Below are positions 35,208-53,915 of a stretch of DNA of 64,000 nucleotides, one piece after another. Position numbers and translations under genes: made by a program. The notes beneath the pieces are model-generated. The model was not told the origin of the DNA. It saw only the letters and a list, made by a program, of their open reading frames with translations, and did not search any database. This DNA comes from Escherichia coli. Lineage in GTDB: Bacteria > Pseudomonadota > Gammaproteobacteria > Enterobacterales > Enterobacteriaceae. Positions within the stretch are counted from its first letter, which is position 1. The number at the start of each line of letters is the position of its first letter. The DNA is taken from the NCBI GenBank assembly GCA_902500055.1, contig GCA_902500055.1_4131.1; one strand, given 5' to 3'.

Positions 35208-35417
35208 TTAATCCTTCGTTACGCTTACGATTATCTGTGTATCCCCATAGTCCTGCCATACTTCCACGCCAGCCGTCGCCCTGGTTAGTCGTGCTGTCAT
35301 CTGCTTAATGGTCTTAGGCTTTAGTGGAACCTGTTGCAGTACTGTACGCATAGCACTATCGACGTTATCATGTACGCCTGCAATAGTGCCTAGAACGCTG
35401 TATACTGTATAGAACAT
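35208..35417 (-). CDS. hypothetical protein
   Basis: 69 aa; AGGAGG upstream of ATG. Confidence 0.5.
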   Translation of the reverse strand: MFYTVYSVLGTIAGVHDNVDSAMRTVLQQVPLKPKTIKQMTARLTRATAGVEVWQDYGDTQIIVSVTKD

Positions 35418-35443
35418 ATGTATGCCCTCCTGATATAGTTAAG

Positions 35444-35461
35444 GCCGCTAGAGAGCGGCCT
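35444..35461 (-). terminator. hairpin, probable terminator
   Basis: Perfect palindrome GGCCGCT-AGAG-AGCGGCC just downstream of 35486..35887. Confidence 0.4.
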
Positions 35462-35485
35462 ATGATGTTTGGTGATGTGTATTGC

Positions 35486-35887
35486 TTACAGCCCTAAGAT
35501 AGTACGTGCTTCGTTACGTTCCTTAGTTTGCTGCATGATGTAAGCTAACTGGTCCTTGCTAATGTATCCCTTGTCCATAGCTTCACGGATAGATACATCA
35601 TAAGCACCGAACCCCGTGCGAACGATACGCACATCATTCAGGTTAGTGTTATAGATACCGCCGAGATCAACGGATTCGAATACTGCATCAACTGTATATT
35701 CGTTGTTACCGTCATTGAAGTTTTCAATCTCAATGTTACGGGACACGGCCCAACGTTTACAGCTTCCAATGATGCGGCAATATTCAGGGTGCATATGACC
35801 ATTACTTACAGCGTGTTCAAGGCCAGCTTTACCAAAAGTCCGGGCCAGTACTAAAACGTCAGCGAAGGAATTGATTGAGAAGGTCAT
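35486..35887 (-). CDS. hypothetical protein
   Basis: Track ORF trimmed to Met12 (MTFSINSF...), which follows AAGGAG; the longer ORF reads through the leader hairpin. Confidence 0.55.
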   Translation of the reverse strand: MTFSINSFADVLVLARTFGKAGLEHAVSNGHMHPEYCRIIGSCKRWAVSRNIEIENFNDGNNEYTVDAVFESVDLGGIYNTNLNDVRIVRTGFGAYDVSIREAMDKGYISKDQLAYIMQQTKERNEARTILGL

Positions 35888-35941
35888 GATAAAACTCCTT
35901 AATTTAGGAGGGAGAACCATTTCCCCCTCTCTATGTAAAAC

Positions 35942-35970
35942 ATTATACTTGATTCTAAGTACTATGCAAG
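35942..35970 (-). promoter_or_regulatory. conserved early-type promoter
   Basis: Minus sense CTTGCA-17 nt-TATAAT, then leader hairpin and the ATG at 35887. Confidence 0.5.
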
Positions 35971-35976
35971 TACTTT

Positions 35977-36309
35977 TTACATTTTAATACCTGGATTCAG
36001 GTAGCGGTGAGATCCATATTCTGGATCGGTTTCGGTCCAGTACTGTAAATCGATAGTACCTTTCGCGTTAATCTTGTCTACCAGCTTATTCATCTTAGCG
36101 TATACTACATCAGCATCGATGCGTTTAAAGCCAGTGGCTTTAGTGAAGTAGTAGTGATTTGCTTCACTATCATTCAGGATGTACCGAGAACCGTTTGCCG
36201 TTTGTGCGATAATGATTGAGTATTCTACGTTACGGTCGAGGCCGTCGATGAATACAGAGGAAACATTAGTACGGATGAAAGCTTTAACGATAGCGATTGA
36301 AGTAGTCAT
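35977..36309 (-). CDS. hypothetical protein
   Basis: 110 aa; AGGAG upstream. Confidence 0.55.
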   Translation of the reverse strand: MTTSIAIVKAFIRTNVSSVFIDGLDRNVEYSIIIAQTANGSRYILNDSEANHYYFTKATGFKRIDADVVYAKMNKLVDKINAKGTIDLQYWTETDPEYGSHRYLNPGIKM

Positions 36310-36363
36310 TTTGAATCTCCTAACTTTGTGGGCCGTCGCACCATTGCCGCCCTACGAGATACA

Positions 36364-36391
36364 TTATTGCAGTACTGATATACTTTGTCAA
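36364..36391 (-). promoter_or_regulatory. conserved early-type promoter
   Basis: Minus sense TTGACA-17 nt (contains CAGTACTG)-AATAAT. Confidence 0.45.
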
Positions 36392-36461
36392 TACTTTTTT
36401 TATTAATAGTTTTCACTCCACCAGCAGATAGTTACTCACCGTTATTAACTATATATTTTGG

Positions 36462-36540
36462 ATACACTTATGCACCCTGTGGGCTAGTTTTTGTCTATGC
36501 GTATATAATAGCAAAGGGACTGACCGGAGTCAATCCCTTT
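36462..36540 (+). repeat. conserved intergenic unit, copy 1
   Basis: ATACACTTATGCACCCTGTGGGCTAG ... hairpin AAAGGGACTGACCGGAGTCAATCCCTTT plus T-run; also at 39212, 42222, 45607. Confidence 0.6.
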
Positions 36541-36555
36541 TTTTATTCTTTTTTG

Positions 36556-36756
36556 TTAGATGATTCTCCAATCATCAACGATCATGGTAAGATACCGAAC
36601 CAGTGATTCGAGTGATTCGTGTTCTCGATAGTCTGCCGCACCGCCAGCGGTACAAGTACAGCCGATTAAGCCGTTTTGCAATTCCTTAATCTGTACATCG
36701 ATAAGGTTGGCTTTAGCTTCTTTCAGTACTTCAACCAGGGCGATAGCGATAGACAT
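36556..36756 (-). CDS. hypothetical protein
   Basis: 66 aa. Confidence 0.5.
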   Translation of the reverse strand: MSIAIALVEVLKEAKANLIDVQIKELQNGLIGCTCTAGGAADYREHESLESLVRYLTMIVDDWRII

Positions 36757-36778
36757 AATGTTTTACTCCAAACTATTG

Positions 36779-36839
36779 GCGGGAGAACTATTCCCCCGCT
36801 CTATGTAAAACATTATACATTACTGGTTAGTACTGTCAA
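36779..36839 (-). promoter_or_regulatory. conserved promoter plus 5' leader hairpin
   Basis: Minus sense TTGACA-N-TATAAT followed by GCGGGGGAA..TTCTCCCGC palindrome. Confidence 0.5.
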
Positions 36840-36846
36840 ATAGTTT

Positions 36847-37104
36847 TTATGAAATATCTTCGATGTAGTCGGCCCATTTCATTTTTTCAGTACTGTCAAG
36901 TGCAATCGGATTGCTAGGATCAAACCATTCACCATTCCCGCAATACATCCCCACGGCGACGGTTTTATATCCATCCTGGGCCGCACTCCACGACATTGCA
37001 CGATAGATATGGCCTTTAACTGGTTGCAGTACTGGTAACGTTTTATGGTCTTCTACGTAGGCCATAGCTTGAGGATTTACCCGATATTGTGTGAATTGAT
37101 CCAT
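36847..37104 (-). CDS. hypothetical protein
   Basis: 85 aa. Confidence 0.5.
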   Translation of the reverse strand: MDQFTQYRVNPQAMAYVEDHKTLPVLQPVKGHIYRAMSWSAAQDGYKTVAVGMYCGNGEWFDPSNPIALDSTEKMKWADYIEDIS

Positions 37105-37180
37105 TATGTTTCCCCTTGTAGTTAGTAAAGTTATTACATCAGTACTATCAAGCTATGTCAATAGTACTGAAATAAAACTT

Positions 37181-37405
37181 TTAGATTAGATTATTGAGGC
37201 CGTTGATGGTAGACTCGCTTTCTTCTTTCTCCCATTGGCGGTAGTACTTCCATGCTTCATGATATGTGGCGATTAGTTCATCTTTTTGATCCTGGTTACA
37301 TGCCAGTACTGAATCACGGTGAGCGGTGTTATAGATAGAATCGAATGATTTCTTCTCTTCTGCCAGGTTAGCTACTTCCCGCATCAGTTCATCAAAGTTA
37401 GCCAT
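37181..37405 (-). CDS. hypothetical protein
   Basis: 74 aa; AAAGGAG upstream. Confidence 0.55.
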   Translation of the reverse strand: MANFDELMREVANLAEEKKSFDSIYNTAHRDSVLACNQDQKDELIATYHEAWKYYRQWEKEESESTINGLNNLI

Positions 37406-37423
37406 TTTATTACTCCTTTTAGT

Positions 37424-37480
37424 GGGGGAGGATATCTCCCCCTATGCAAAACATTATACTTTGTTTTAGTTATTATGCAA
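37424..37480 (-). promoter_or_regulatory. conserved promoter plus 5' leader hairpin
   Basis: Minus sense TTGCAT-16 nt-TATAAT, then GGGGGAGATATCCTCCCCC palindrome. Confidence 0.5.
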
Positions 37481-37736
37481 GTACTTTTTTCATATAAACA
37501 TTAAATTCTACACCGCCGTAACCTTCCACGATGATATGTTTTGCGTTATCACGCTTGCACATAGTGAAACCGTTGTTGATATGTTCTGCATTTTCCAGGG
37601 ATACATCACCGATTGCAGCACATACGGCACTAATAACAGTATTCCGCAAAGTACTGGTATCATTAGCGGTCATAGTAGTTTGCAGTACTACGTTGTCGTA
37701 TACGTGTGCATTGATAGTGATTTCGATAGTGTTCAT
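37473..37736 (-). CDS. hypothetical protein
   Basis: Track ORF trimmed to Met19 (MNTIEITIN...); upstream part is leader hairpin read-through. Confidence 0.5.
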   Translation of the reverse strand: MNTIEITINAHVYDNVVLQTTMTANDTSTLRNTVISAVCAAIGDVSLENAEHINNGFTMCKRDNAKHIIVEGYGGVEFNVYMKKVLA

Positions 37737-37823
37737 GGTGTATCTCCTGGACTTGAGGGGAAACCATTTCCCCCTCTCGATATAAAACATTATACGTTAA
37801 TCTAACTACAATGCAAGTACTTT

Positions 37824-38015
37824 TTAAATTTTATTTCCGATATAGTCCGGCATGTTCTTTTCAGTCATACGCTTTGCTAATGTCTGCATATGGCTTATAG
37901 CGTTCAAGGTGTCTTCCTCCAGGGATGAATCAAGATAATCAGGATCATTCTTCACCTTGCAATGATTATGATAGCGTAGTACAGCCAGTACTTTTTTAAC
38001 TTCTTCAACTGTCAT
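37824..38015 (-). CDS. hypothetical protein
   Basis: 63 aa. Confidence 0.5.
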   Translation of the reverse strand: MTVEEVKKVLAVLRYHNHCKVKNDPDYLDSSLEEDTLNAISHMQTLAKRMTEKNMPDYIGNKI

Positions 38016-38284
38016 AATAAGTACCCCACTTCGTTAGCTTTCAGGTTAGTATCAATCATCAGTGGATTTTTGTAGTTCACAAAACGATTAGTTTTCTCGA
38101 TAGCGAATCCCATATAATCCAGCTTGCTTACAGTACATTCATTCTTAAAAACTTCTTTCGCTGTATCGATGGCTGATTGCATGGATAACCGCCCATCTAA
38201 ATTAATGTTTCCAAATGATCCACCAGCAGAAGTAGGATTACCGTTCATATCTTTAATGATCATAGTAGCGGAGTAGCTGGACAT
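38012..38284 (-). CDS. hypothetical protein
   Basis: 90 aa; ATGA-coupled to downstream gene. Confidence 0.5.
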   Translation of the reverse strand: MSSYSATMIIKDMNGNPTSAGGSFGNINLDGRLSMQSAIDTAKEVFKNECTVSKLDYMGFAIEKTNRFVNYKNPLMIDTNLKANEVGYLL

Positions 38285-38372
38285 AATTTTGTTTCCTTTT
38301 ATTGGTGGGGGAGAACTATTCTCCCCTTGATGTAAACTATTATACAGTACTGATATACTTTGTCAAATACTT

Positions 38373-38777
38373 TTATTCGCCCATATAGATTAAGTTATCA
38401 TCGCCTACATAGGGATCGCAAACGTTGATTTCTTCGCAGTACTTCGTGAATACATCGCCATAGTGACCTAAACCACGATCCCAAAAACCAGTTCCGTGAC
38501 CTTCGCGGGTAAGGAACAGATCATGACCAGCTTGCTCATAACCGTAATCAATAAACATACCGCGAACTACTTCCAGATCATTACCGTGTTTCTCAATGAA
38601 GCGAGAACATGCAATCACCGCCGCTTGACGTGCTTCATCAGATAACTCATAATCTTCCAGGTAATCGCCGTTATCATTATGTACAGTACTGAATTGCATA
38701 GCTTCAATGTAACCAGCGACCATTGCAGCATGATTTTTATCGTTGGCGATATTCCGAGCAAGATTAGTAGTAGTCAT
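38373..38777 (-). CDS. hypothetical protein
   Basis: 134 aa; motif REGHGTGFWDRG. Confidence 0.55.
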   Translation of the reverse strand: MTTTNLARNIANDKNHAAMVAGYIEAMQFSTVHNDNGDYLEDYELSDEARQAAVIACSRFIEKHGNDLEVVRGMFIDYGYEQAGHDLFLTREGHGTGFWDRGLGHYGDVFTKYCEEINVCDPYVGDDNLIYMGE

Positions 38778-38798
38778 GATTTTATTCCTTTTAGTATC

Positions 38799-38857
38799 GG
38801 GGAGAACTATTCTCCCCTTGATGTAAACTATTATACAGTACTAAGATACTTTGTCAA
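38799..38857 (-). promoter_or_regulatory. conserved promoter plus 5' leader hairpin (archetype)
   Basis: Minus sense TTGACA-16 nt (AGTACTG)-TATAAT, GTTTACATCAA, then GGGGAGAATAGTTCTCCCC, then AAAGGAA and ATG. Confidence 0.55.
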
Positions 38858-38861
38858 ATAC

Positions 38862-39083
38862 TTAATTACGTTTAAAATGATATGTACCTTTATCATCCTG
38901 TACGCCCCATACTGATTTACCATCAACACCAGTGAAGCCGGATTGTAATTCAATATGGAAACCATTATTATCAACTACAAAAACTTTTTTATTTTCATCC
39001 CGATAACATTGATATTCTGAATCAACATTAAAGGCCGCATCATTCAGACGATTGGAAGCGTAAATGCAAGTCATTGTAGTCAT
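38862..39083 (-). CDS. hypothetical protein
   Basis: Track ORF trimmed to Met12 (MTTMTCIY...). Confidence 0.5.
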   Translation of the reverse strand: MTTMTCIYASNRLNDAAFNVDSEYQCYRDENKKVFVVDNNGFHIELQSGFTGVDGKSVWGVQDDKGTYHFKRN

Positions 39084-39211
39084 GATTTTATTCCTTAATA
39101 TACCAGGGAGAACCATTTCCCCCTCTCGATATAAAACATTATACTTGATTCTAAGTACAATGCAAGTACTTTTTAAAAAATAGTTTTCAGTACTGAATAC
39201 TTATATAATAG

Positions 39212-39295
39212 ATACACTTCCGCACCCTATGGGTCAGTGAGTTATCTCTCAATGGATATATAATAGCAAAGGGACTGACCGGAGTCAATCCCTTT
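39212..39295 (+). repeat. conserved intergenic unit, copy 2
   Basis: GATACACTTCCGCACCCTATGGGTCAG ... AAAGGGACTGACCGGAGTCAATCCCTTTTTT. Confidence 0.6.
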
Positions 39296-39306
39296 TTTAA
39301 TCTTTT

Positions 39307-39891
39307 TTATCGTGTTACCTTACTTGCTGCCACATCACGCTTTTTATAGTACTGATTCCAGATATTGCAGGTTAAACCGTAATCAAGTACTTTAATAAGG
39401 CCATTACGATCCTGGCCGATATTCTGTTTTCTGATATCTCTTATCGTTAGTGTTGATAATGTATCATCGACGTGTTGTAGTGCATCAGCAAAGCGGTGCT
39501 GGCGTTCGATTGCATTACGTTTAATATTGTACTTTAATTCATTGCACGCGTTTACGTGCTTCACACTACCTTTGCTTGCAGTACTCAACCGATCCATAAC
39601 GATAAACATATTATCAGGATCGCATAAATGCATATGCACCTTTGCAAAGTACTGTTTCAACTGAGGGCGGTCATAGTCTAAAAAATTCCATACCTTACAT
39701 TCAGTTTCATTTTGTTCTACACCCGCATCACAATTCGCGACCTTAATCACTAACCGATCATTTAAAGCGAAAACTATACGGGAAGAACCAGCACCGATGA
39801 TCTCCAGGCCAGCTAACCGACAAGCTGAAAGGATCTCTTTGTTGGTTTCCATTTCTGACAGTGTACGGATGAATTTAGTATAATTACGCAT
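39307..39891 (-). CDS. Hanks-type (eukaryotic-like) Ser/Thr protein kinase-like protein
   Basis: Trimmed to Met20 after AAGGAG; Gly loop IGAGSSRIVF, Lys in VIKV, catalytic-loop-like RDIRKQN, DYG in place of DFG. Confidence 0.55.
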   Translation of the reverse strand: MRNYTKFIRTLSEMETNKEILSACRLAGLEIIGAGSSRIVFALNDRLVIKVANCDAGVEQNETECKVWNFLDYDRPQLKQYFAKVHMHLCDPDNMFIVMDRLSTASKGSVKHVNACNELKYNIKRNAIERQHRFADALQHVDDTLSTLTIRDIRKQNIGQDRNGLIKVLDYGLTCNIWNQYYKKRDVAASKVTR

Positions 39892-39922
39892 TGCATGTTC
39901 TCCTTGAGTTAATGAAACTATA

Positions 39923-40165
39923 TTACAGTACTTTACTATCAATGGCAACTACTTTTTTAACATTAACGGCGTGGATCACTTCCTTCGTGTTTTTAGTACT
40001 GAATACTTTCGCCGCTCCTTGTTCGACCGTGATACGATAGCGACCATTAACATCAACCATATTAATAAAGTCCGGCGTGCTGAATGGTGTTGTTTTACAT
40101 TTGAGTACTGTTAACAGTTCCACCAGCGATGTAGTTTCTTTGATACGTTTTTCTAAAGTAATCAT
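39923..40165 (-). CDS. hypothetical protein
   Basis: Track ORF trimmed to Met20 (MITLEKRIK...). Confidence 0.5.
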   Translation of the reverse strand: MITLEKRIKETTSLVELLTVLKCKTTPFSTPDFINMVDVNGRYRITVEQGAAKVFSTKNTKEVIHAVNVKKVVAIDSKVL

Positions 40166-40222
40166 TTTGTTTCCCCCGTGTTGGTATGTACATATAGTAC
40201 TAAAACATTTGAGTACTGTCAA

Positions 40223-40441
40223 TTAGATAATATTATATTTCTTTAAAGATAATGCGTCTTGGGTTGGCTGATACTCGATACCGTTCCCATTATTGACTTC
40301 AACTAATAAACCTTTGTCAATTAGTTTTTTAATAGTACGATACCCCTGTTGAAAATTGGTAAAATGTGAATCATTACGAAAGGTATAACCGTGCTTAACT
40401 GCTTCATCAATAGTTTTCTTTTCGATTTTAGATAATTTCAT
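40223..40441 (-). CDS. hypothetical small protein, possible DNA-binding
   Basis: Trimmed to Met20 (MKLSKIEKK...); shares leader sequence with the upstream gene. Confidence 0.45.
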   Translation of the reverse strand: MKLSKIEKKTIDEAVKHGYTFRNDSHFTNFQQGYRTIKKLIDKGLLVEVNNGNGIEYQPTQDALSLKKYNII

Positions 40442-40494
40442 TTTGTTTCTCCCGTGTTGGTATGTGTACATAATACTAAAACAATTGAGTACTG

Positions 40495-40749
40495 TCAACG
40501 TGATATTAGTTTTATTTTCTTATTATATTGTTGGTGTTCATATAGGTTTATTTTTCCTGTGTTCTCTATTACTATTCTGTTGTTAGTGTCCACATCGATT
40601 ACACGCAGTTTCCCGTTGCTTAACTTCCTTGGTAATAGGTTACCATTAATAAACTCATTAGCAAGCTGTACGGCCTTTGTGATGATTCTCTTCGGTGCTT
40701 TATAGTGTACCCGTAAGATGTTATCTTTATATAGTTGAACCTTAATCAT
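40495..40749 (-). CDS. hypothetical protein
   Basis: 84 aa. Confidence 0.5.
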   Translation of the reverse strand: MIKVQLYKDNILRVHYKAPKRIITKAVQLANEFINGNLLPRKLSNGKLRVIDVDTNNRIVIENTGKINLYEHQQYNKKIKLISR

Positions 40750-40810
40750 TTTGTTTGTCCTATAAAAAAGGCGGGATCAGTTCCCGCCGTGTTGTTAGTA
40801 CTGCAAGTTA

Positions 40811-41206
40811 TTAGATAACCTGGCGGCGTTTACTGTATACTGTTACACGATTACCCTTACGATCATGTCGGATCTCTTTCTGGTTGCGAATCAGTTCACT
40901 TGGACGCTTAAGGTTTGCCAGGTGATCCGCGTGAGTCCATGCGGTGTGGTTTACCTGTACTTTGATATCAGAATCAGCGATAAACTCATCTTGTGCGTCA
41001 AGTATTGCCGCCAGCATATCCGCTCGTTTTAGTTCTGCTGCTGTTAGTACTGGCTCAGGTGAATTCACAATATCAGAGATTTCTTTGAACTGTACGGCCC
41101 AGCGTTGACCTTTCGGTGCTGTCGTTCCCATGTCTTTAAATGCTGCTCCTTCCTCGCGTGCAACAATACGGGCAGCTTCACGGGTAGCGTAGAATTTAGT
41201 AATCAT
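40811..41206 (-). CDS. hypothetical protein, paralog of 52866..53132
   Basis: Start set to Met4 (MITKFYATREAARIV...) by alignment with MNIKYFATREQARIA; shared ...RKGNRVTVY tail. Confidence 0.55.
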   Translation of the reverse strand: MITKFYATREAARIVAREEGAAFKDMGTTAPKGQRWAVQFKEISDIVNSPEPVLTAAELKRADMLAAILDAQDEFIADSDIKVQVNHTAWTHADHLANLKRPSELIRNQKEIRHDRKGNRVTVYSKRRQVI

Positions 41207-41301
41207 GGTATACATCCTATTAGTTGAGTTAGTACTACAAGTTAGAGTCTATTATAAAGTACTATCTGGGCAATGTCAAATAGTACTTTAAATGGATTCT
41301 A

Positions 41302-41625
41302 TTACATGTCTTTCTTACGTTTTACATCGTAGTAGCGAACTGTTATTTCTTTGTTAATCTCTTTTTCGATGCGGTGAATAACTTTTTCTTTCGGGTTGAA
41401 ACCTATAACGGTTTCTTTAATGATCTCCAAACCAGTGTATTCGCCTTGCGTACCGTAACCGTATGTAAAGGTTTCGTGTCCCAGGTCTTCCCAGCGGTCG
41501 CCAATTAACGCAGACACGTAGCAAGAGTGGTAAGTATTGCCGTTCCGATCAGTCCAGCGATTAACTTTAATGTCAAAGGAGGTTACAATTTTCAATTCCA
41601 CTTTCTGGGTAAGGATCATAGCCAT
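41302..41625 (-). CDS. hypothetical protein, paralog of 47258..47602
   Basis: 107 aa; shared YGYG and C-terminal VKRKKD. Confidence 0.55.
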   Translation of the reverse strand: MAMILTQKVELKIVTSFDIKVNRWTDRNGNTYHSCYVSALIGDRWEDLGHETFTYGYGTQGEYTGLEIIKETVIGFNPKEKVIHRIEKEINKEITVRYYDVKRKKDM

Positions 41626-41712
41626 TTTTATTTCTCTCTCTTTGTTAGGAGGGGAACCATTTCCCCGCCTTGATGTAAACTATTATACAGTACTAAGATA
41701 CTTTGTCAATAC

Positions 41713-41988
41713 TTAAGTATTGTAAATGTCGTGAATAGTGATAAAGTTTTTACGCCCGTAAACCTGTAAATCGGTATTAATGTAATGCTTATCAAGTACA
41801 TCCTCGACGCTTAAAGCCGTGTCGTGAATATCTTCGTAGAATTGAGGATCTACAATCTTGCTTAAGTCATCCGGCGTTAACTTATCGTTAAGCCATTGAA
41901 CCGCCTGGATATCTGCATCACGTTTCCATTGTTCCAGGTTAGTAGTCAGTACTTGTTCGATTTCGTTAGCTGTCAGTAGAATCCGCAT
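41713..41988 (-). CDS. hypothetical protein
   Basis: 91 aa. Confidence 0.5.
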   Translation of the reverse strand: MRILLTANEIEQVLTTNLEQWKRDADIQAVQWLNDKLTPDDLSKIVDPQFYEDIHDTALSVEDVLDKHYINTDLQVYGRKNFITIHDIYNT

Positions 41989-42008
41989 TTTAATGTTTCC
42001 TTATCAGT

Positions 42009-46907: not shown

Positions 46908-47177
46908 TTAATAGGTGTATGGTTGACGCTCAAACAATGATTGCACGTTGTACGCCCCGCTTATGGGCTTCGCTGGTAAATCAATTTTATATTGTTCACG
47001 CTTAAAGATAATAAAACGGCAATTGTTTTTAACATCAAAATTGATTGAACGTTCCAGGAGTTTACCATCGTGCACAAATACAAGATAACCGCTTGGTACT
47101 TGTTTTGTAGTACTGGTTGCAACCATAGACCGCCGAACATGTGTACCTGCATCGATTAAAGTACTGATATTTTTCAT
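46908..47177 (-). CDS. hypothetical protein
   Basis: 89 aa. Confidence 0.5.
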   Translation of the reverse strand: MKNISTLIDAGTHVRRSMVATSTTKQVPSGYLVFVHDGKLLERSINFDVKNNCRFIIFKREQYKIDLPAKPISGAYNVQSLFERQPYTY

Positions 47178-47257
47178 TATACGATCCTCTTAAGTTAATT
47201 TAATTTCTTTCCCCTATGCAGACACTATATCAAAGTATCTGCATAAAGTAAAGCTAA

Positions 47258-47602
47258 TTAAAGATCTTTTTTGCGTTTAACATCAGTTACCGAACTGTAA
47301 ACAGTGATATTATTGTCACGGCAAAAACGGGAAAGATAAGAACCGCGTAAAAACTCTTTATCTTCCATATTAATAACCTTGCTAAATTCTTCCATTGCTA
47401 CAGTGTCAAAGTGATCCCCGTATCCATATTGGAACGGCACGTTTACTACTTCAATAAAATTACCATCAATTTCTACGTCTACACTTAAAGAGAAATAAGT
47501 GTTACCATATGAAGCCTGGAACCAACGCCGAGCGGCAATATGTACAACTTCAACAGAAGACAGGTTGATATTTTGTTTTGCGATAGTGTTGATATTAGCC
47601 AT
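47258..47602 (-). CDS. hypothetical protein, paralog of 41302..41625
   Basis: 114 aa; shared YGYG and VKRKKD tail. Confidence 0.55.
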   Translation of the reverse strand: MANINTIAKQNINLSSVEVVHIAARRWFQASYGNTYFSLSVDVEIDGNFIEVVNVPFQYGYGDHFDTVAMEEFSKVINMEDKEFLRGSYLSRFCRDNNITVYSSVTDVKRKKDL

Positions 47603-47683
47603 TTTAATTTCCTCTTAGTTGTCTTGATAAAATCTATTATGCCAGTACTATCAAACTATGTCAATAGTACTGTGATAATATTT

Positions 47684-47896
47684 TTACTTACTTTCTTTCG
47701 CTGCTTTGTGCGTTGCCACTGCCATAACCACATCAGCACGAACAAAGTTTTTTACCGTGTCAGTGTAGTAATTGATTGCATCGTCAACATCTGTAAAAAT
47801 CCGATACATGCCGCACCACGATACTTTATAACCTTCTTTCACTTCTTCCAGCTTAACCAGTGATTTGTTTACTTTGATTTTTGTGATGATAGCCAT
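47684..47896 (-). CDS. hypothetical protein
   Basis: 70 aa; promoter TTGACA-17-CATAAT upstream, duplicated at 47620 and 47920. Confidence 0.5.
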   Translation of the reverse strand: MAIITKIKVNKSLVKLEEVKEGYKVSWCGMYRIFTDVDDAINYYTDTVKNFVRADVVMAVATHKAAKESK

Positions 47897-47980
47897 TATT
47901 GTTTCCTCTTAGTTGTCTTGATAAAATCTATTATGCCAGTACTATCAAACTATGTCAATAGTACTGTGATAATATTTTTA

Positions 47981-48121
47981 CTTACTTTTTGCTTTCTTTG
48001 CTGCTTCCACCTGGTCGGCCCACTCTTTACCCCATACCTGAGCGTTATAGTGATACTGACAAAGAGCAACGCCCCGCTTTAAACCAGTAATAGATTTCTG
48101 ACCACATTGACAAGTTTTCAT
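47981..48121 (-). CDS. small Cys-containing protein (46 aa), possible zinc ribbon
   Basis: Hand-translated MKTCQCGQKSITGLKRGVALCQYHY...; leader hairpin upstream. Confidence 0.35.
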
Positions 48122-48207
48122 TTTAGTTTCCTTGTAGTGGGGAGAACCATTTTCTCCCCTTGATGTAATGTATTATACTTTATTCGATTTACTTTGCAAG
48201 TACTTTT

Positions 48208-48435
48208 TTAATTTAATTCATCAAGGCAAAGGATACGCTCAACGCCCAAATCAGTTAAACTAATCGACGGCACTTGATAGGTTTCAATGTATGCTACACT
48301 TGCCCACTGACCGAACTCATTAACGGCCCAGGTATTCATTGCATTTTGCAATTCCGCACCTTCCTTGTTGGTAATGACTGCAACTACTTGTTCGTTGCCA
48401 GTAGTACCAGATACGCGAGTAATGATAATAGCCAT
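48208..48435 (-). CDS. hypothetical protein
   Basis: Track ORF trimmed to Met20 (MAIIITRVSG...). Confidence 0.5.
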   Translation of the reverse strand: MAIIITRVSGTTGNEQVVAVITNKEGAELQNAMNTWAVNEFGQWASVAYIETYQVPSISLTDLGVERILCLDELN

Positions 48436-48549
48436 TGTTTTGATTCCTTTGATTTGGAAGGAGAACCGTTTCCCCCTCTCGATGTAAAACATTATACGCT
48501 AATCTCTTAATCGTGCAAGTACTTTTTATTACTTTTTGCAAAATACTTT

Positions 48550-48650
48550 AAACGCACTCAATCGCATTCTAACGACTTTAACGCCACCAGCTAGGGCAAT
48601 GCATCAGATAAACAGTTTAATACGTTAGAATCGTTTCTAGGCGGTGCTGG
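48550..48650 (-). other. interleaved inverted repeats (A-B-A'-B')
   Basis: CGCATTCTAACG ... GCCACCAGC ... CGTTAGAATCG ... GCTGGTGGC. Confidence 0.4.
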
Positions 48651-48672
48651 TGGCCTGGTAAACGATAAACAC

Positions 48673-48698
48673 AAAAAAGCCCACTGTATAAGTGGGCT
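48673..48698 (-). terminator. intrinsic terminator after 48720..49202
   Basis: Hairpin AGCCCACTTATACAGTGGGCT followed by T-run on minus sense. Confidence 0.55.
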
Positions 48699-48719
48699 AA
48701 TGATTCAGTACTTTAATTG

Positions 48720-49202
48720 TTATGCTTCAACTTTGCGATGAGCTTCGATCCATTCCTCGCGAGTCATACCACTGGAGTTAATCGCATCCAGTACTACCGC
48801 AATGCAGTTACCACGCACCGGAATCAGATATTCTTCCCCGTTATCAAGTACTACCGCTACACGTTCTTGAATCCATTTTTTAGCTTTTACTTCTGGCTTA
48901 TCTTCACCGTACTTTTTCGCCAGGGCTTTTTGTGCCATCTCTGTAACTACTTCCAGATCCAATCCAACTACTGCCGCCTGAATACTTTCAATTGTTGCTT
49001 GTAGTTCTGCTTCACGGGCCGCCTTTGCCGCTTCAATTTCTGCCGCTTTATTTGCTTGTAGTTCTTTCGCAGTACTGTAAGCGATGTTAAAATTATTGCG
49101 TACCGCTTTCATGGTATCGTTATCCAGTTCAGCCAGGATCTCAGCCGCGACGTTAGTTTCATTTGCTACCAGTGCTTTGATGAATGATTTTACATTAGCC
49201 AT
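48720..49202 (-). CDS. Ala/Glu-rich coiled-coil protein, hypothetical
   Basis: Trimmed to Met6 (MANVKSF...) after GAGGA; central KAAEIEAAKAAREAELQATIESIQAA. Confidence 0.5.
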   Translation of the reverse strand: MANVKSFIKALVANETNVAAEILAELDNDTMKAVRNNFNIAYSTAKELQANKAAEIEAAKAAREAELQATIESIQAAVVGLDLEVVTEMAQKALAKKYGEDKPEVKAKKWIQERVAVVLDNGEEYLIPVRGNCIAVVLDAINSSGMTREEWIEAHRKVEA

Positions 49203-49408
49203 TTTATAAATCCTCAATTAAAGTTTAGTTTACGTTTATTAGTGTATCAAAGTTTTCTCGACGTGTCCAGTTTTTCGTTCGACTTACTGGCGGTCTACTT
49301 AGTGCTCCCCGTCTTGATGTAATACATTCTACGCTTTTCTGCGGTAATGTCAACTACTTTCTTAAAACTATTTTCAAAGTATCTCAGTACTACGATACTA
49401 CAAAAACA

Positions 49409-49430
49409 AAAAAAGCCCACCAGGTGGGCT
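49409..49430 (-). terminator. intrinsic terminator after 49437..49667
   Basis: Hairpin AGCCCACCTGGTGGGCT followed by T-run on minus sense. Confidence 0.5.
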
Positions 49431-49436
49431 ATGTAC

Positions 49437-49667
49437 TTAATCAGTGAGTAAAATATTAAACACTTTACCATTTAACGTTATTGGTGCACTGCTACCAGGC
49501 TCAAGATCCGTTAATATACCTGCAATCGCTTTATCATTGGCGACCTTTCCAGTGTCCAACAGTACTACAGTACTGATAAGATTAACGCTCGTTTCAATAT
49601 CATAATGCACGGCGTTAAGTAGTTGTGTAGTACTGCTTTCGTTAAGTAAAACAATTCGCTTAGTCAT
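49437..49667 (-). CDS. hypothetical protein
   Basis: 76 aa. Confidence 0.5.
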   Translation of the reverse strand: MTKRIVLLNESSTTQLLNAVHYDIETSVNLISTVVLLDTGKVANDKAIAGILTDLEPGSSAPITLNGKVFNILLTD

Positions 49668-49688
49668 GATGTTACCCCGTAGTATCTA

Positions 49689-49988
49689 TCAACGGCAATT
49701 AATAACGCCGGTATGCGTTACTTTCTCAGTATCCATTACAGTGACCGAACCGCGTTTAGTACTGGCATCATAATAAATTGTCGTGCTACCGTTTTCGTCT
49801 TCTTCATGGAACGGGCCGTTTTTAAATGCTTCCGGCTGAATCTCCAGATCCTTTAATACAATCTCGCCAGTACTTTCATCGGTCATTGCAACAGTGCACT
49901 GAATGAATTTTTCACTACTTACATCTAATGACGCATTAACAGCGAAAGAGGAAACAGATAAAGCCAGGGCGATGATTGTAATTTTCAT
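49689..49988 (-). CDS. secreted or periplasmic small protein
   Basis: 99 aa; N-terminal signal peptide MKITIIALALSVSSFAVNA with AxA-type cleavage site. Confidence 0.5.
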   Translation of the reverse strand: MKITIIALALSVSSFAVNASLDVSSEKFIQCTVAMTDESTGEIVLKDLEIQPEAFKNGPFHEEDENGSTTIYYDASTKRGSVTVMDTEKVTHTGVINCR

Positions 49989-50072
49989 TTGATTATCCTT
50001 AGTTACCAGGGGGAACCGCTCCCCCTTGCGATGTAAAATATTATACAGTACTAAAAACTATTATCAAGTACT

Positions 50073-50309
50073 TTATGATTTTTTATAAAACATTTCAGCA
50101 GTGATATTTTTACCCGTTGGCTGTACTTTATCCAGAATTTTTTGATGCCCTGGTCGTCCAAAGGAATATGATCCGTAAACAGTAAACCAGTAGTTGCCAT
50201 CAGTGTTTACATGTACAGCACAATAGGGTACGCCCCGCGATTCATCACTAGTAAAGTGTGCTACCGTTCCCGTTACATTCGAAGTCGTTGATTTGATTTG
50301 TTCAAGCAT
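50073..50309 (-). CDS. hypothetical protein
   Basis: 78 aa. Confidence 0.5.
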   Translation of the reverse strand: MLEQIKSTTSNVTGTVAHFTSDESRGVPYCAVHVNTDGNYWFTVYGSYSFGRPGHQKILDKVQPTGKNITAEMFYKKS

Positions 50310-50418
50310 TTTATTATTCCTTAGTTACCAGGGGGAACCGCTCCCCCTATGCAAAACATTATACGCGTTTAAAAACTAATTGCAAGTATTTTAATAAAAA
50401 GTATTTGAAAAATAGTTG

Positions 50419-50447
50419 TTGACAAGTGCATCCAGTACTGGCATAAT
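50419..50447 (+). promoter_or_regulatory. plus-strand sigma70-like promoter, divergent from early genes
   Basis: TTGACA-17 nt (CCAGTACTG)-CATAAT on the plus strand. Confidence 0.45.
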
Positions 50448-50448
50448 T

Positions 50449-50562
50449 ACTACATCAAGACGAAACAGTCACTAACCCACCGGGTGCCGAGATCCGTCTA
50501 TTAAATGATTCAGTACTGAAAAAGTAACGGGGAGTTATTATCTCCCCGCGTTGTTATTTTGT
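50449..50562 (+). ncRNA. candidate short plus-strand transcript
   Basis: Runs from the promoter at 50419 to hairpin CGGGGAGTTATTATCTCCCCG plus T-rich tract; contains CCCACCGGGTGC box; no ORF. Confidence 0.25.
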
Positions 50563-50775
50563 AAGGTATAAACAGAAGTCGCCTTTATTTGCTACGCCGC
50601 CAGTGTAACGCGATGAATAGTTAGAAACGTCCTGGACTTCTGCTATTACCAGGGTATCATCATTCAATTCGTCGCAGAAGCAAACGGCTGGATCTTGTAC
50701 GCCGATTTTGTCGGCATGTTCCCGCATAGATTTCACCAGTGCTTCCAGTTGGGAAAGAGTAGTGATATTAGCCAT
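50554..50775 (-). CDS. hypothetical protein
   Basis: Track ORF trimmed to Met11 (MANITTLSQ...). Confidence 0.5.
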   Translation of the reverse strand: MANITTLSQLEALVKSMREHADKIGVQDPAVCFCDELNDDTLVIAEVQDVSNYSSRYTGGVANKGDFCLYLTK

Positions 50776-50863
50776 TTTATTTTCCTCATTACCAGGGAGA
50801 ACCATTTCTCCCTTTGATGTAAACCATTATACAGTACTGAAAACTAATTGCAAGTACTTTTTT

Positions 50864-51124
50864 TCAGTATTGTTTATCGTCGTCTTCCTCGATGAATTGA
50901 CCGACGAAATGATCTACTTTCGCTTTGAGGCTTTTATAATCTTCTTCTACTTCCGTTAAACGTTCCTGGTAGTATTCCAGTGCCTCAAGATACGCCGCCT
51001 CAGCAGTTTTTGCACGCATAGCTAAATTCATTCCACGCGTTTCATCATAAAGCCAATAACCATCGGTGCACTGGCTAATAGATAATGACTTGCTTAGTGC
51101 TGTATAGCTAATTACTTTACTCAT
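50864..51124 (-). CDS. hypothetical protein
   Basis: 86 aa. Confidence 0.5.
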   Translation of the reverse strand: MSKVISYTALSKSLSISQCTDGYWLYDETRGMNLAMRAKTAEAAYLEALEYYQERLTEVEEDYKSLKAKVDHFVGQFIEEDDDKQY

Positions 51125-51181
51125 TAGATAACCCTCAGTAAAGGCGGGAACTATTACCCGCCATTATCTCAGTACTGAATA

Positions 51182-51421
51182 TTACATTCCAACCATTGCA
51201 GCACGGATCGCCGTAGTGCTATACTTGAATCCGTCCGGCGTTGTAGTAGTACCGTTGGCTTTTAATCTGCGGTACATACATTCCGCAGCAATATCTTTCG
51301 TTTTACTTTGTGCGATGCAATTTTGAGCAATCCGGTATAATGATTCATCGTTATTGATCCAAAGGCTTACATTCCAATGAGTTTTGTTTTTGTGCCCGTT
51401 GTAAGTTTTAGTACTAGCCAT
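51182..51421 (-). CDS. hypothetical protein, paralog of 53221..53460
   Basis: Trimmed to Met11 (MASTKTYNGHKNKTHWNVSLWINNDE...); shared C-terminal PDGFKYSTTAIRAAMVGM. Confidence 0.55.
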   Translation of the reverse strand: MASTKTYNGHKNKTHWNVSLWINNDESLYRIAQNCIAQSKTKDIAAECMYRRLKANGTTTTPDGFKYSTTAIRAAMVGM

Positions 51422-51511
51422 TTTTAAATCCTCGTTTGAGCGGGGAACCACTCCCCGCCTTGATGTAAAGTATTATACGCTTTTAAACTTAGTTTACAAG
51501 TACTTTTTAAA

Positions 51512-52120
51512 TTAATATTCGATTGATTCCACTACGCCATCAATAACATTGAATTGATATTCGTTACCCTCAATCAGTGCAGTAATGTTTTCAGTAGTGA
51601 ATTGATCCTCATATGCATTCTCTAAATCACGGTACAACTTACGAGATAATTCACGGATCGCATCAGTCAGTAAGTTTTCCAGATCCTCAGCCAATGCCGC
51701 CTGTTTTACAGTTAAATCAGTGTAGCGAGTATCAACGCAACCGCCTACCGTGTTTTCGTGTGCGTAGCGTGATTGGAAACGTTCTACACTCATTTCTAAA
51801 TCATCCTCGTTCAACAGGTGACGGATTGAACGATATTTCGTTAACGCCTTAACCTTGCGTAAAAACTTCTCAGCGTCAACGTGGTTAGTACTGATTGATG
51901 CACCGTCACCTTGCGACCAAAAACCACTGTATTGCAATTCAGCTTCATCTATGCCGTATTCTGGTAGTACTGTTTCTTTATAGTACTCGATAACGCCCTC
52001 AGCAAAGAAATTATCCTCACATGAACGCTCACGATCCCGAACCAGTTCAATAGCCGCCGTTTTTTGTTCTGCGTTCAGTTCAGAAAAAGCCATAACAAAA
52101 GTAGTAGTGATAGTTTTCAT
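51512..52120 (-). CDS. hypothetical protein
   Basis: 202 aa; motif SGFWSQGDGAS; preceded by duplicated leader cassette. Confidence 0.55.
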   Translation of the reverse strand: MKTITTTFVMAFSELNAEQKTAAIELVRDRERSCEDNFFAEGVIEYYKETVLPEYGIDEAELQYSGFWSQGDGASISTNHVDAEKFLRKVKALTKYRSIRHLLNEDDLEMSVERFQSRYAHENTVGGCVDTRYTDLTVKQAALAEDLENLLTDAIRELSRKLYRDLENAYEDQFTTENITALIEGNEYQFNVIDGVVESIEY

Positions 52121-52140
52121 TTTGTAACCCTCATTCAGTA

Positions 52141-52282
52141 GTTGATGTAAGTATTATACGCTTTTACTTTCTATTGTCAAACTATTTTATCAGGGGAGTT
52201 TTTCGTGTGCCTTACTCCTGGGCTACTTAACGGGAAGTTACTTATTTCGTTCCCCGTCCTGATGTAAAACATTATACGCCTT
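52141..52282 (-). repeat. duplicated ~140-bp leader cassette, copy 2
   Basis: Near-identical to 42009..42150. Confidence 0.55.
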
Positions 52283-52344
52283 TAAACATAGTTTACAAGT
52301 ACTTTTTAAAAATAGTTTTCAGTACTGAATATTAAAAAAAAGTA

Positions 52345-52373
52345 TTGACAGCATTATCAAGTACTGGCATAAT
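52345..52373 (+). promoter_or_regulatory. plus-strand sigma70-like promoter
   Basis: TTGACA-17 nt-CATAAT, followed by CCCACCGGGTGC box. Confidence 0.4.
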
Positions 52374-52547
52374 ATACCCCATGACAACAGCTAACCCACC
52401 GGGTGCACAATTGTAACTATACTAAACTAATTTTTCTATAGATACACTCCCGCACCCTATGGGCTACGGCTTATCTGCCAATGAATACATTATGCCAGTA
52501 CTGACAAAATAAGTCAATACCGGCAATTGTAAAGATTTGTAAACTGC

Positions 52548-52784
52548 TTATACTGCAATCGCGTCCAGGCTGTAATAATAATAAGTGCCGTATTGGTGTA
52601 CTTTATTACCTTTTATTTCAGTACTGAATGAATCCGAACGGTTTGCATATGATGTTAATTTAAAGTACTTTGATTTGCTGATACGTTGCCATACACCACA
52701 GATCCGCTGTAAGTAAGTAGTTTTATTCGTGGTAGTATCTTTTACGGTTTTAACTTCAGTCATATACATATTAGTCATTTTCAT
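52548..52784 (-). CDS. hypothetical protein
   Basis: 78 aa. Confidence 0.45.
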   Translation of the reverse strand: MKMTNMYMTEVKTVKDTTTNKTTYLQRICGVWQRISKSKYFKLTSYANRSDSFSTEIKGNKVHQYGTYYYYSLDAIAV

Positions 52785-52865
52785 TACTCCAGGTTATAGG
52801 CGGGAAGAGTTCCCGCTCTCGATGTAAAACATTATACGCTTTTATCAGTACGGTGCAAGTACTTT

Positions 52866-53132
52866 TTATTCAAGTACTGCAATCTTTTTAGTACGGTACA
52901 CGGTCACGCGGTTGCCCTTTCGGTCGAGCTTTATTTCTACCACTCGACGCGATACACTATCGGGACTTTTTAAGGCCGCTAACCAGTACTGTAATGATCT
53001 GGCCGTACTACGCTTTACAATGGCCCAACGTTCACCACTTGCCGATCCCGCTCCCATATCTTTAAACGTTGCCCCGTCCTGGCGTGCGGCGATCCGAGCT
53101 TGTTCACGCGTCGCAAAATACTTAATATTCAT
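52866..53132 (-). CDS. hypothetical protein, paralog of 40811..41206
   Basis: Trimmed to MNIKYFATREQARIA... Confidence 0.55.
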   Translation of the reverse strand: MNIKYFATREQARIAARQDGATFKDMGAGSASGERWAIVKRSTARSLQYWLAALKSPDSVSRRVVEIKLDRKGNRVTVYRTKKIAVLE

Positions 53133-53220
53133 GTTGTTGCCCTTATCGTTGGTGTATGAATAAAACACTATTATAAAGTACTATCCCCGTGCAATAGTAC
53201 TTTAAATAAATTCTATTCTA

Positions 53221-53460
53221 TTACATTCCAACCATAGCCGCACGGATCGCAGTAGTGCTATATTTGAATCCGTCCGGTGTTTTATCTTGTCCAGTCTGTT
53301 CTAAAAATAACATCATATGACGGGCCGCATCATTGCGATTAGTATTGGCGGCAATAAAGTCCAGGGCCAACCGATACAATCCCTCATCGTTATTAATCCA
53401 CAGGCTTACATTCCAATGAGTTTTGTTTTTGTGACCTAAGAACATTTTTGATTTAGCCAT
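53221..53460 (-). CDS. hypothetical protein, paralog of 51182..51421
   Basis: Trimmed to Met14 (MAKSKMFLGHKNKTHWNVSLWINNDE...). Confidence 0.55.
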   Translation of the reverse strand: MAKSKMFLGHKNKTHWNVSLWINNDEGLYRLALDFIAANTNRNDAARHMMLFLEQTGQDKTPDGFKYSTTAIRAAMVGM

Positions 53461-53552
53461 TTTTTTAATCCTCTTATATAGTGGGGAACTATTCCCCACC
53501 TGATGTAAAACATTATACGCTTTTATTCAGTACTGTCAAACTAATTTTTAAC

Positions 53553-53915
53553 TTATTCGTAAATTTTGCCACTGTCAGCCCATACCAGGAAACGAGGCAT
53601 ATTATCCCATGCATCTTGTTTTAAATTTAAACCGTGTAATACTTCTGTACTTTCCATTCCTGGTACTGGTTTACTATACACCGCGAAATTTTCGCCCATA
53701 TACTGATAAACCATCGTCAAATCACTGGCGATCATCTTATGGATCATCGCATCAAGCATCACGGTGGCGGCGTATTGTTCACGCTTAAGCGGCAGCATTT
53801 TAATCAGTTCGCGGTATGCGTCAATGTGAGTTTTAACCGTTGCCGCCGGAAGATCTTTCATATCGTCGCGGAAGTTAACCAGGTTAGCAATGATTTTAGT
53901 GATTTGAGTCGCCAT
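53553..53915 (-). CDS. hypothetical protein
   Basis: 120 aa; first gene of the early-like cluster. Confidence 0.55.
   Translation of the reverse strand: MATQITKIIANLVNFRDDMKDLPAATVKTHIDAYRELIKMLPLKREQYAATVMLDAMIHKMIASDLTMVYQYMGENFAVYSKPVPGMESTEVLHGLNLKQDAWDNMPRFLVWADSGKIYE

Follow-up and report, generated by a model that had tools for sequence, protein, structure and literature searches.

Promoter and leader-hairpin cassettes of an Asteriusvirus jumbo coliphage, arrayed in its direct terminal repeat, resemble the PeSL elements of T4-type phages

What does a phage gain by placing a consensus promoter, and often a G/C-rich hairpin behind it, in front of one small gene after another? The question is raised by a 64,000-nucleotide stretch of DNA deposited under Escherichia coli (GenBank assembly GCA_902500055.1, contig GCA_902500055.1_4131.1), called here the window, in which a preliminary description took positions 35208-53915 to hold some 35-40 near-identical promoter and hairpin cassettes. 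The answer we favor, with modest confidence, is that the array consists of modular early-gene cassettes, that it lies in a direct terminal repeat of an Asteriusvirus jumbo coliphage, and that its units are of one kind with the promoter-early stem-loop (PeSL) of T4-type phages.

The repeated motif itself is real. The 17-mer GATGTAAAACATTATAC, allowed up to three mismatches, is matched 29 times where 0.84 matches would be expected, and 27 of these lie on one strand, from 35932 to 55266. Read on the minus strand, the motif becomes TTGACA or TTGCAA, a spacer of 16-17 bp, TATAAT, GTTTTACATC, a hairpin, a Shine-Dalgarno sequence (SD), and ATG. The earlier reading of the first elements as a host promoter is well supported by sequence: 40 consensus sigma-70 promoters were counted on the minus strand (38 within 35208-53915), 11 of which match the consensus at 12 of 12 positions, as no plus-strand site does. 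Five further promoters belong to a separate class, TTGACT/TATTAT. Each small gene has a cassette of its own, about 85 bp long, consisting of an A-rich tract, the sigma-70 -35 and -10 elements, GTTTTACATC and, at the 3' end of the unit, the SD and start codon. In the alignment, the A/T-rich tract 5' of the -35 element has the consensus AAAAGTAC ahead of TTGCAA.

The number originally proposed was about right for the promoters but not for the hairpins. Only 24 of the 40 leaders carry the GC hairpin (23 of them within 35208-53915); these leaders, each with a single hairpin, measure 46-56 nt from the end of the -10 element. Eleven promoters have leaders of 28-53 nt lacking a GC hairpin, four have long structured leaders (only one of which, at 49331, reaches an open reading frame [ORF] of its own), and one has no ORF at all. 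The two principal leader forms differ by the hairpin alone: CATCAA-CCACTGATAAGGAAAC as against CATCAA-(GGGGAGAA..TTCTCCCC)-CACCAATAAAAGGAAAC. Nor are the cassettes near-identical. Mean column identity is 66% over the 96 nt of the cassette alignment, and all 24 hairpin sequences differ from one another (MAFFT alignments of whole cassettes, of hairpins and of a second repeated element, described below, misplaced gaps).

The DNA in question belongs to a phage. By megablast, 35208-53915 matches 222 phage records, the best being Asteriusvirus jumbo coliphages (BAU.Micro_ELP-22, G17, vB_Ec-M-J, and fEgEco12) at 92-96% identity, with matches that cover only 35-64% of the query and are split into numerous pieces. 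The window comes, by its sequence, from an Asteriusvirus jumbo coliphage. Its collinearity with vB_Ec-M-J takes in the first 31 kb of that phage, whose record annotates positions 1-21525 as 'Direct Terminal Repeats'. Mapped onto the window, the inner boundary of the repeat falls at about 35056 and the physical end at about 55652. The entire promoter cluster lies inside, with genes read from 55.6 kb toward 35 kb, and the range first proposed for it was too short: the cluster runs to 55287 and coincides with the repeat. That the consensus promoters, one per small gene, are confined to the terminal repeat is likewise well supported by these sequences. Terminal repeats of related phages have been placed at 19.7-21.5 kb by PhageTerm, restriction digests, or both (PMC11895373, PMC13070987, PMC11218385). 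Within the repeat, genes are spaced about 85 bp apart, and immediately outside it they abut or overlap. Since the sequence goes on past the outer end of the repeat, the source record is evidently an assembly of circular style that includes the repeat a single time. In that outer part (55652-64000), the counterparts in PBECO4 are large opposite-strand genes annotated as 'regulator of chromosome condensation'. Also in the megablast list are 13 records of Campylobacter phages and one record each for Acinetobacter and Pseudomonas.

The G/C-clamped palindromic stem-loop of the preliminary description proves to be a structure under selection. The stem has 5-9 contiguous pairs (mostly 7-9), sometimes with more outer pairs past a mismatch, and closes on a loop of 3-5 nt; in 24 of the 40 cassettes, it sits between CATCAA and ACTAAnAAGGA. 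Folding was done for 20 leaders; in every one, the minimum-energy and centroid structures alike consist of the hairpin, the SD and AUG stay free of pairing, and the z-score is negative (-0.8 to -3.7). Hairpins with their own arms fold at -12.8 kcal/mol, those with swapped arms at -10.2 kcal/mol, and none of 2000 permutations reached the observed value. Pooling the window with G17, vB_Ec-M-J, PBECO4, fENko-Kae01, and A73 gave 56 distinct hairpins, in which the loop sequences vary freely. A set of 42 distinct arm pairs, drawn from five phage genomes, has 96.4% of its cells paired, two-sided changes at 7 of the 8 stem pairs, and 50 compensatory cells where shuffles give 14 +/- 3.8; when the partner is slid by one column, pairing falls to about 71% or less. 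The inner seven pairs include 17 G.U or U.G pairs and no A.C or C.A pair. The 5' arm is 96% purine (G-rich) and the 3' arm 94% pyrimidine.

Tolerance of G.U but not of A.C, together with the compensatory changes, argues that what is under selection is a genuine fold of the sense RNA and not a site in duplex DNA. An inverted repeat at a fixed place beside a promoter might otherwise have suggested an element of the DNA itself: an operator for a dimeric protein, a cruciform, or a hairpin promoter for a virion RNA polymerase, as in N4. This alternative has very little left to recommend it. The arms covary instead of keeping one sequence, and the presence of 17 G.T pairs against no A.C pair implies that one strand alone can fold; this asymmetry and covariation are the grounds on which a DNA operator or cruciform was rejected. 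In addition, according to a general review (PMC13282480), jumbo phages without an RNA polymerase of their own rely on that of the host, often assisted by a sigma factor that the phage encodes; Sharanji, an Asteriusvirus, has a gene for one that is RpoD-like (PMC11895373).

Where in the RNA would the hairpin lie? The stem begins 8-17 nt past the -10 element (mostly 12 nt among the 24 window hairpins, and 12-13 nt in 67 of 104 cassettes), as compared with a usual transcription start 7-8 nt past it, which would put the stem just inside a transcript whose start is predicted. In the T7 A1 promoter, 7 nt separate the -10 element from +1, and the transcript begins ATCGAGAGGG; three cassettes share the first 10 transcribed bases of T7 A1 at an equal distance from the -10 element. 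If +1 is the A of cATC, as in T7 A1, the unpaired 5' tail would be 0-6 nt long (mode 5). At the other side, the hairpin ends 16-23 nt ahead of the AUG in 23 of 24 leaders.

So fixed a distance from the -10 element, and the identity of three initial transcribed regions to that of T7 A1, could point to a role during transcription itself. Promoters of perfect consensus are prone to slow escape, and those of the repeat are perfect or nearly so; perhaps a G-rich initial region and an early nascent hairpin help the polymerase leave promoters that bind it too tightly, or else set a promoter-proximal pause. Yet equally strong promoters, both in this repeat and in Pectobacterium phage CBB, do without the hairpin, and we consider this explanation quite improbable.

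A predicted hairpin so close to the start of a message recalls the 5'-terminal hairpins that stabilize mRNA, as in the 5' untranslated region of ompA and the leader of T7 gene 10 (phi10). Hairpins at the 5' end hinder access by RppH and RNase E, and structured obstacles hinder RNase E scanning. Among 5' stem-loops of like composition, the nearest parallel is the T7 phi10 leader, which starts GGGAGACCACAACGGTTTCCC at +1: in both, a G-rich 5' arm and a C/U-rich 3' arm, at what is for the cassettes the predicted start of the message, come before a stretch of A/U-rich RNA that lacks structure and then a strong SD (compare GGGAGACCACAACGGUUUCCC of phi10 with GGGGAGAAAUGAUUCUCCCC of one cassette). 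The two differ in that the phi10 stem begins at +1 and is transcribed from a promoter for T7 RNA polymerase, while here a 5' tail of 0-6 nt is predicted. The predicted 5'-proximal geometry fits 5' protection without proving it, and protection of the mRNA by the hairpin is, from sequence, plausible.

The cassette as a whole has a different counterpart. PeSLs are mobile cassettes found in the T4-type phages RB49/phi1, PST/T4, and nt-1/KVP40 (Arbiol et al. 2010, PMC2839356; Comeau et al. 2014, PMC4122927), where they are repeated before ORFans and mediate modular shuffling (PMC2839356, PMC4122927). Like them, the unit described here is intergenic, repeated, and near 100 bp in length, with an A/T-rich tract, a sigma-70 promoter, a stem-loop of the polyG-then-polyC type, an SD, and a start codon. 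As with PeSLs, it precedes small genes of unknown function in variable regions, and the junctions of indels between close relatives fall inside it.

This last point can be quantified. Breaks in the alignment fall within cassettes at all five junctions with vB_Ec-M-J and at about 9 of 12 junction ends with G17. Cassettes make up 22% of the repeat but hold about 14 of 17 break ends by hand count (binomial P ~2e-7, a statistic that takes in vB_Ec-M-J and G17 and leaves PBECO4 aside). At 41687, 44792, and 53517, one cassette in the window corresponds to two in a relative, placed around an extra gene of 180-234 nt; one window cassette, for instance, is represented in vB_Ec-M-J by two cassettes around a 183-nt gene. 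Certain indels amount to exactly one gene plus one cassette. Furthermore, a block of three cassettes with their genes is found also in the unrelated Vequintavirinae phage A73. Breaks of synteny at cassettes and a block held in common with A73 are together the signature of PeSLs. The cassettes extend to Klebsiella phage fENko-Kae01, of a different genus-level cluster, which has both leader forms: of its 34 promoters, about 10 carry the same hairpin at the same place. The repeat of CBB, at the first threshold, has about 30 consensus promoters, almost all with short leaders and no hairpin.

There are differences. In PeSLs, of which there are five subclasses, the stem-loop precedes the transcription start, either inside the promoter or beside it. 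In phi1, whose sequence reads TTGACA-GGGGAGgataaCTCCCC-CTACAAT, it occupies mostly the spacer between the -35 and -10 elements, whereas here it lies past the -10 element, inside the predicted transcript. PeSLs reside in internal hyperplastic regions, the present array in a 21-kb direct terminal repeat of a jumbo phage. The present cassettes also lack a U tract and have AGTACT sites built into their promoters. No sequence homology between the cassettes and Krischvirus was detected.

The authors of the PeSL work gave the stem-loop a role as terminator or attenuator, and this is the main rival here. Acting on read-through from the gene upstream, the hairpin would limit the build-up of transcription along the array, and it might also define and protect the 3' end of the upstream mRNA; its place in the leader of the next gene would on this view be incidental. 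The PeSL stem-loop of RB49/phi1, of the same polyG-polyC type, reduced lacZ expression as strongly as did rrnB T1 (PMC2839356), and phi1 stems such as GGGGAG...CTCCCC resemble those of the cassettes. Most genes of the repeat, moreover, have no canonical terminator between them, and the minus strand of the repeat has only about eight other terminator-like sites. None of the 24 hairpins is among these, however, and none is followed by a U tract (the tails read, for example, CACCAAUA or ACUAAGAG), the ground on which an intrinsic terminator was rejected. Were the hairpin a working terminator, its place past the predicted start would make it cut short the messages of its own gene too, and the position relative to the promoter is fixed here but variable in PeSLs. 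All told, a terminator or attenuator role seems to us unlikely, if still worth serious consideration.

Might the hairpin instead be something to be recognized? A phage or host RNA-binding protein, such as a translational repressor, or an endoribonuclease, perhaps one like RegB acting on GGAG, could use it to time early messages or to switch them off. The core GGGG(A)...(U)CCCC is nearly invariant over the 56 distinct hairpins from two genus-level clusters, the purine-then-pyrimidine polarity is strict, GGAG occurs in many 5' arms, and a shared tag would fit co-regulation. On the other hand, the loops are free in both length and sequence, unlike those of most protein-bound hairpins, and RNase III would need a longer stem. 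The analysis identified no candidate protein, and an Rfam 15 scan of 34-57 kb (E up to 1) returned two chance-level matches only. We regard recognition of this sort as improbable.

The modular-cassette explanation would have the array work as follows. Once the DNA enters, host sigma-70 RNA polymerase would fire the promoters, and a hairpin would form at about +5 to +28 of each mRNA. There it would serve as a 5'-proximal barrier to the entry and scanning of RppH and RNase E, and it would keep the ribosome site clear of gene-specific pairing. When transcripts read through from the preceding gene, this hairpin could also act as a 3' barrier to exonucleases. The repeated cassettes, meanwhile, would offer substrates for homologous recombination, by which small genes could be inserted, deleted, or exchanged.

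Several considerations weigh against this account. Arms were anchored on each sequence's own predicted loop, with loops swapped for GAAA, a procedure that tilts the counts toward pairing; because of that lean, the permutation of swapped arms serves as an independent check. Many cassettes are duplicates of one another, which inflates the shuffle tests. A role of structure alone does not account for the invariant GGGG/CCCC core or for the fixed G-then-C polarity. Classical 5' protection requires a 5' tail of about 4 nt or fewer, and an alternative +1, at the first A of ACATC, would lengthen the tail to 2-8 nt. The hairpin occurs at only 1 of 52 promoter-like sites (up to two mismatches) in CBB; 16 promoters of the repeat and nearly all of those in CBB go without it, so it is not needed for early expression as such. 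The PeSL stem-loop was measured as a terminator, not as a stabilizer (PMC2839356). Finally, the literature searched yielded no start sites, timing, or half-lives for any Asteriusvirus, nor any description of promoters, transcription, or AGTACT specific to Asteriusvirus or jumbo phages.

Gene arrays in terminal redundancies are familiar from the host-takeover module of SPO1 and the pre-early region of T5. Like them, the present array packs numerous small genes without known function into a long terminal repeat and gives each a very strong promoter for the host sigma factor and a strong ribosome site. It differs in having one gene only with a recognizable domain (that of a GNAT acetyltransferase). 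These phages are not known to use a first-step transfer. A role of the genes in host takeover, as the preliminary description had it, may be supposed only from their position and the type of promoter. Closer relatives provide a closer parallel: in the jumbo phages CBB and GAP32, of the same clade, RpoD-like early promoters have been predicted before short genes (PMC5259590), with the same consensus and the same tie to short hypothetical genes and the terminal repeat. That work gives 18 such promoters and mentions no leader hairpin; the scan of the CBB repeat made here gives the 52 sites noted above.

AGTACT, which the preliminary description had placed within the cassette motif, is indeed found there, as 35 of the 40 promoters have it in one or the other of two fixed positions, but it is a genome-wide motif and not specific to cassettes. 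It is the commonest hexamer of the window (272 copies, 21.5 expected); CAGTACTG occurs in 65 copies where 0.6 would be expected, and many GC-rich 6-bp palindromes (e.g., CAGCTG, AGGCCT, and GGGCCC) are absent. Enrichment is 15-19 fold in G17, vB_Ec-M-J, PBECO4, fENko-Kae01, and CBB, and 13-19 fold over the clade, as against 0.87-fold in E. coli K-12, 2-fold in A73, and no copy in phi1. Since AGTACT appears in all three coding frames (75, 62, and 43 times), selection acts at the level of DNA. The extended consensus is approximately TTTCAGTACTGAAA. In 18 promoters, AGTACT overlaps the first T of the -35 element (AGTACTTGCAA), and in 17 it abuts the -10 element (AGTACTG-TATAAT); some promoters have both, and the two places account for a sharp peak at 20-23 bp in the spacing of one AGTACT from the next. 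Such a pair looks, by sequence, like paired operator sites over a promoter.

One might go further and imagine a two-layer control code specific to Rak2-like jumbo phages, AGTACT sites in DNA and the G-then-C leader hairpin as a tag in RNA, a doubtful but not idle thought. AGTACT, enriched in at least three genus-level groups and standing in promoters about 20 bp apart against the -35 and -10 elements, would be the site of a phage-encoded factor that binds or modifies DNA, marking phage DNA and switching early promoters off or on, and the hairpin would be the matching RNA tag setting the fate of early messages. No description of the AGTACT motif was found in the literature searched, nor of either layer as conceived here. 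As a separate matter, the region 22000-28000 (also 32000-34000), with 14 small minus-strand genes, has one AGTACT in 6 kb, compared with about 3 per kb on either side; this AGTACT-poor island is conserved at 94-97% in other Asteriusvirus genomes.

Whatever the hairpin does, the cassettes provide a concrete map of early transcription units in poorly studied 350-kb coliphages, about 80% of whose genes have no known function, and they correct the start codons of up to ten small genes. The idea behind PeSLs, that regulatory cassettes double as sites of recombination, would be extended beyond T4-type phages, taking in jumbo-phage terminal repeats as well as gene exchange with unrelated phages. Natural pairs of leaders with and without the hairpin offer a ready-made comparison of the effect of a 5'-proximal hairpin on expression, and the compact units of promoter, hairpin, and SD could serve as strong expression parts. 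Their positions are collected in Table 1.

Table 1. Promoters, leader hairpins, and extent of the terminal repeat in the window (window coordinates)
Position	Strand	Type	Promoter	Hairpin	Remarks
35056..55652	-	Direct terminal repeat equivalent			~20.6 kb here, ~21 kb in relatives; from collinearity with vB_Ec-M-J 1-21525
35885..35969	-	Cassette	TTGCAT-16-TATAAT	35908-35929	SD; ATG 35887
36307..36391	-	Promoter	TTGACA-17-AATAAT		Different, weaker leader structure; ATG 36309
36754..36839	-	Cassette	TTGACA-16-TATAAT	36779-36799	ATG 36756
37102..37161	-	Promoter	TTGACA-17-TGTAAT	none	28-nt leader
37403..37480	-	Cassette	TTGCAT-16-TATAAT	37424-37442	
37734..37816	-	Cassette	TTGCAT-16-TATAAT	37755-37776	
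38282..38366	-	Cassette	TTGACA-16-TATAAT	38308-38326	
38775..38857	-	Cassette	TTGACA-16-TATAAT	38799-38817	
39081..39165	-	Cassette	TTGCAT-16-TATAAT	39105-39124	
40439..40498	-	Promoter	TTGACA-17-TATTAT	none	Short leader
41204..41279	-	Promoter	TTGACA-17-TATAAT	no GC hairpin	44-nt leader
41623..41709	-	Cassette	TTGACA-16-TATAAT	41651-41666	Indel junction; relatives have two cassettes around extra gene
41986..42049	-	Promoter	TTGACA-16-TATAAT		33-nt leader
42058..42165	-	Promoter	TTGCAT-16-TATAAT		~72-nt structured leader running into next promoter
42630..42711	-	Cassette	TTGCAC-16-TATAAT	42655-42669	
42929..43009	-	Cassette	TGGACA-16-TATAAT	42949-42969	
43204..43281	-	Cassette	TTGCAT-17-TATAGT	43224-43242	
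43639..43698	-	Promoter	TTGACA-16-TATAAT		Short leader; GNAT acetyltransferase gene
43961..44037	-	Promoter	TTGGAA-17-TATTAT	no GC hairpin	
44181..44289	-	Promoter	TTGACA-17-CATAAT		Followed by CCCATAGGGTGC element copy; no ORF
44738..44814	-	Promoter	TTGACA-16-TATAAT	none	46-nt leader; indel junction
45043..45127	-	Cassette	TTGACA-16-TATAAT	45068-45087	
45481..45562	-	Cassette	TTGCAA-16-TATAAT	45503-45521	
46069..46149	-	Cassette	TTGCAA-16-TATAAT	46090-46109	
46297..46378	-	Cassette	TTGCAA-16-TATAAT	46319-46338	
47600..47664	-	Promoter	TTGACA-17-CATAAT		Short leader
47894..47958	-	Promoter	TTGACA-17-CATAAT		Short leader
48119..48199	-	Cassette	TTGCAA-16-TATAAT	48139-48159	Cassette and gene common to Vequintavirinae phage A73
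48433..48518	-	Cassette	TTGCAC-16-TATAAT	48457-48478	Common to A73
49246..49353	-	Promoter	TTGACA-16-TAGAAT		Long structured leader
49986..50067	-	Cassette	TTGATA-16-TATAAT	50008-50026	
50307..50385	-	Cassette	TTGCAA-16-TATAAT	50329-50349	
50773..50853	-	Cassette	TTGCAA-16-TATAAT	50794-50813	
51419..51499	-	Cassette	TTGTAA-16-TATAAT	51439-51459	
52118..52180	-	Promoter	TTGACA-16-TATAAT		Short leader; 202-aa gene
52191..52298	-	Promoter	TTGTAA-16-TATAAT		~72-nt structured leader
52776..52858	-	Cassette	TTGCAC-16-TATAAT	52800-52816	
53458..53539	-	Cassette	TTGACA-16-TATAAT	53480-53500	Indel junction
53913..53997	-	Cassette	TTGCAC-16-TATAAT	53941-53953 (weaker)	Promoter just beyond 53915
55180..55287	-	Outermost promoter	TTGACA-16-TATAAT		Long structured leader; ~390 bp from outer end of repeat

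The preliminary description held that many ORFs of the region carry spurious N-terminal extensions reading through the hairpin. This is so for 10 of the 24 hairpin cassettes, in which an in-frame ATG or GTG, either in the hairpin loop or (as ATG) within TATAATG, lengthens the mechanically called ORF by 2-34 codons. An AUG within the loop was considered as a real upstream start and set aside: it is found in about 9 of 24 loops, only 2-3 nt past the purine arm, and its reading frame agrees with that of the gene no more often than chance would predict. Among the ten largest proteins of the repeat, nine are of unknown function and one is the GNAT acetyltransferase (Pfam, PHROGs). The minus-strand ATGs at 41625 and 47602 begin paralogous genes, encoding 107 and 114 amino acids, that both match phrog_6246. 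A scan for transfer RNA and transfer-messenger RNA genes found none.

Two other repeated elements accompany the cassettes. The first, on the minus strand, has -10 elements at 36510, 39265, 42271, 45661, and 52494, with related copies near 44232 and 54383. A GC hairpin, AAAGGGATTGACTCCGGTCAGTCCCTTT, holds the -35 element TTGACT and scores as terminator-like; TATTAT follows and then a small hairpin, whose arms differ in compensatory fashion between copies (GGC/GCC, TGAG/CTCA, GCCG/CGGC, AGCA/TGCT). The 3' part contains the invariant sequences CCCAYAGGGTGC and AGTGTATC. The element recurs 6-7 times in each terminal repeat of Asteriusvirus, fENko-Kae01, and CBB, with 35 copies seen in all, and Rfam gave no match to it. 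Its sequence makes it a candidate for a multi-copy small RNA or a protein site.

The second is a conserved leader of about 72 nt, AUCAGGACGGGGAAC..CCCCGUUAAGUAG..GGAGUAAG..CUCCCCUGAU, present at 42058-42143 and 52191-52276 and, as a variant, at 49246-49331. It lies behind a consensus promoter, with a second promoter directly after it, and is predicted to form two hairpins closed by AUCAGG/CCUGAU. The same leader occurs in G17, vB_Ec-M-J, PBECO4, and the Vequintavirinae phage A73.

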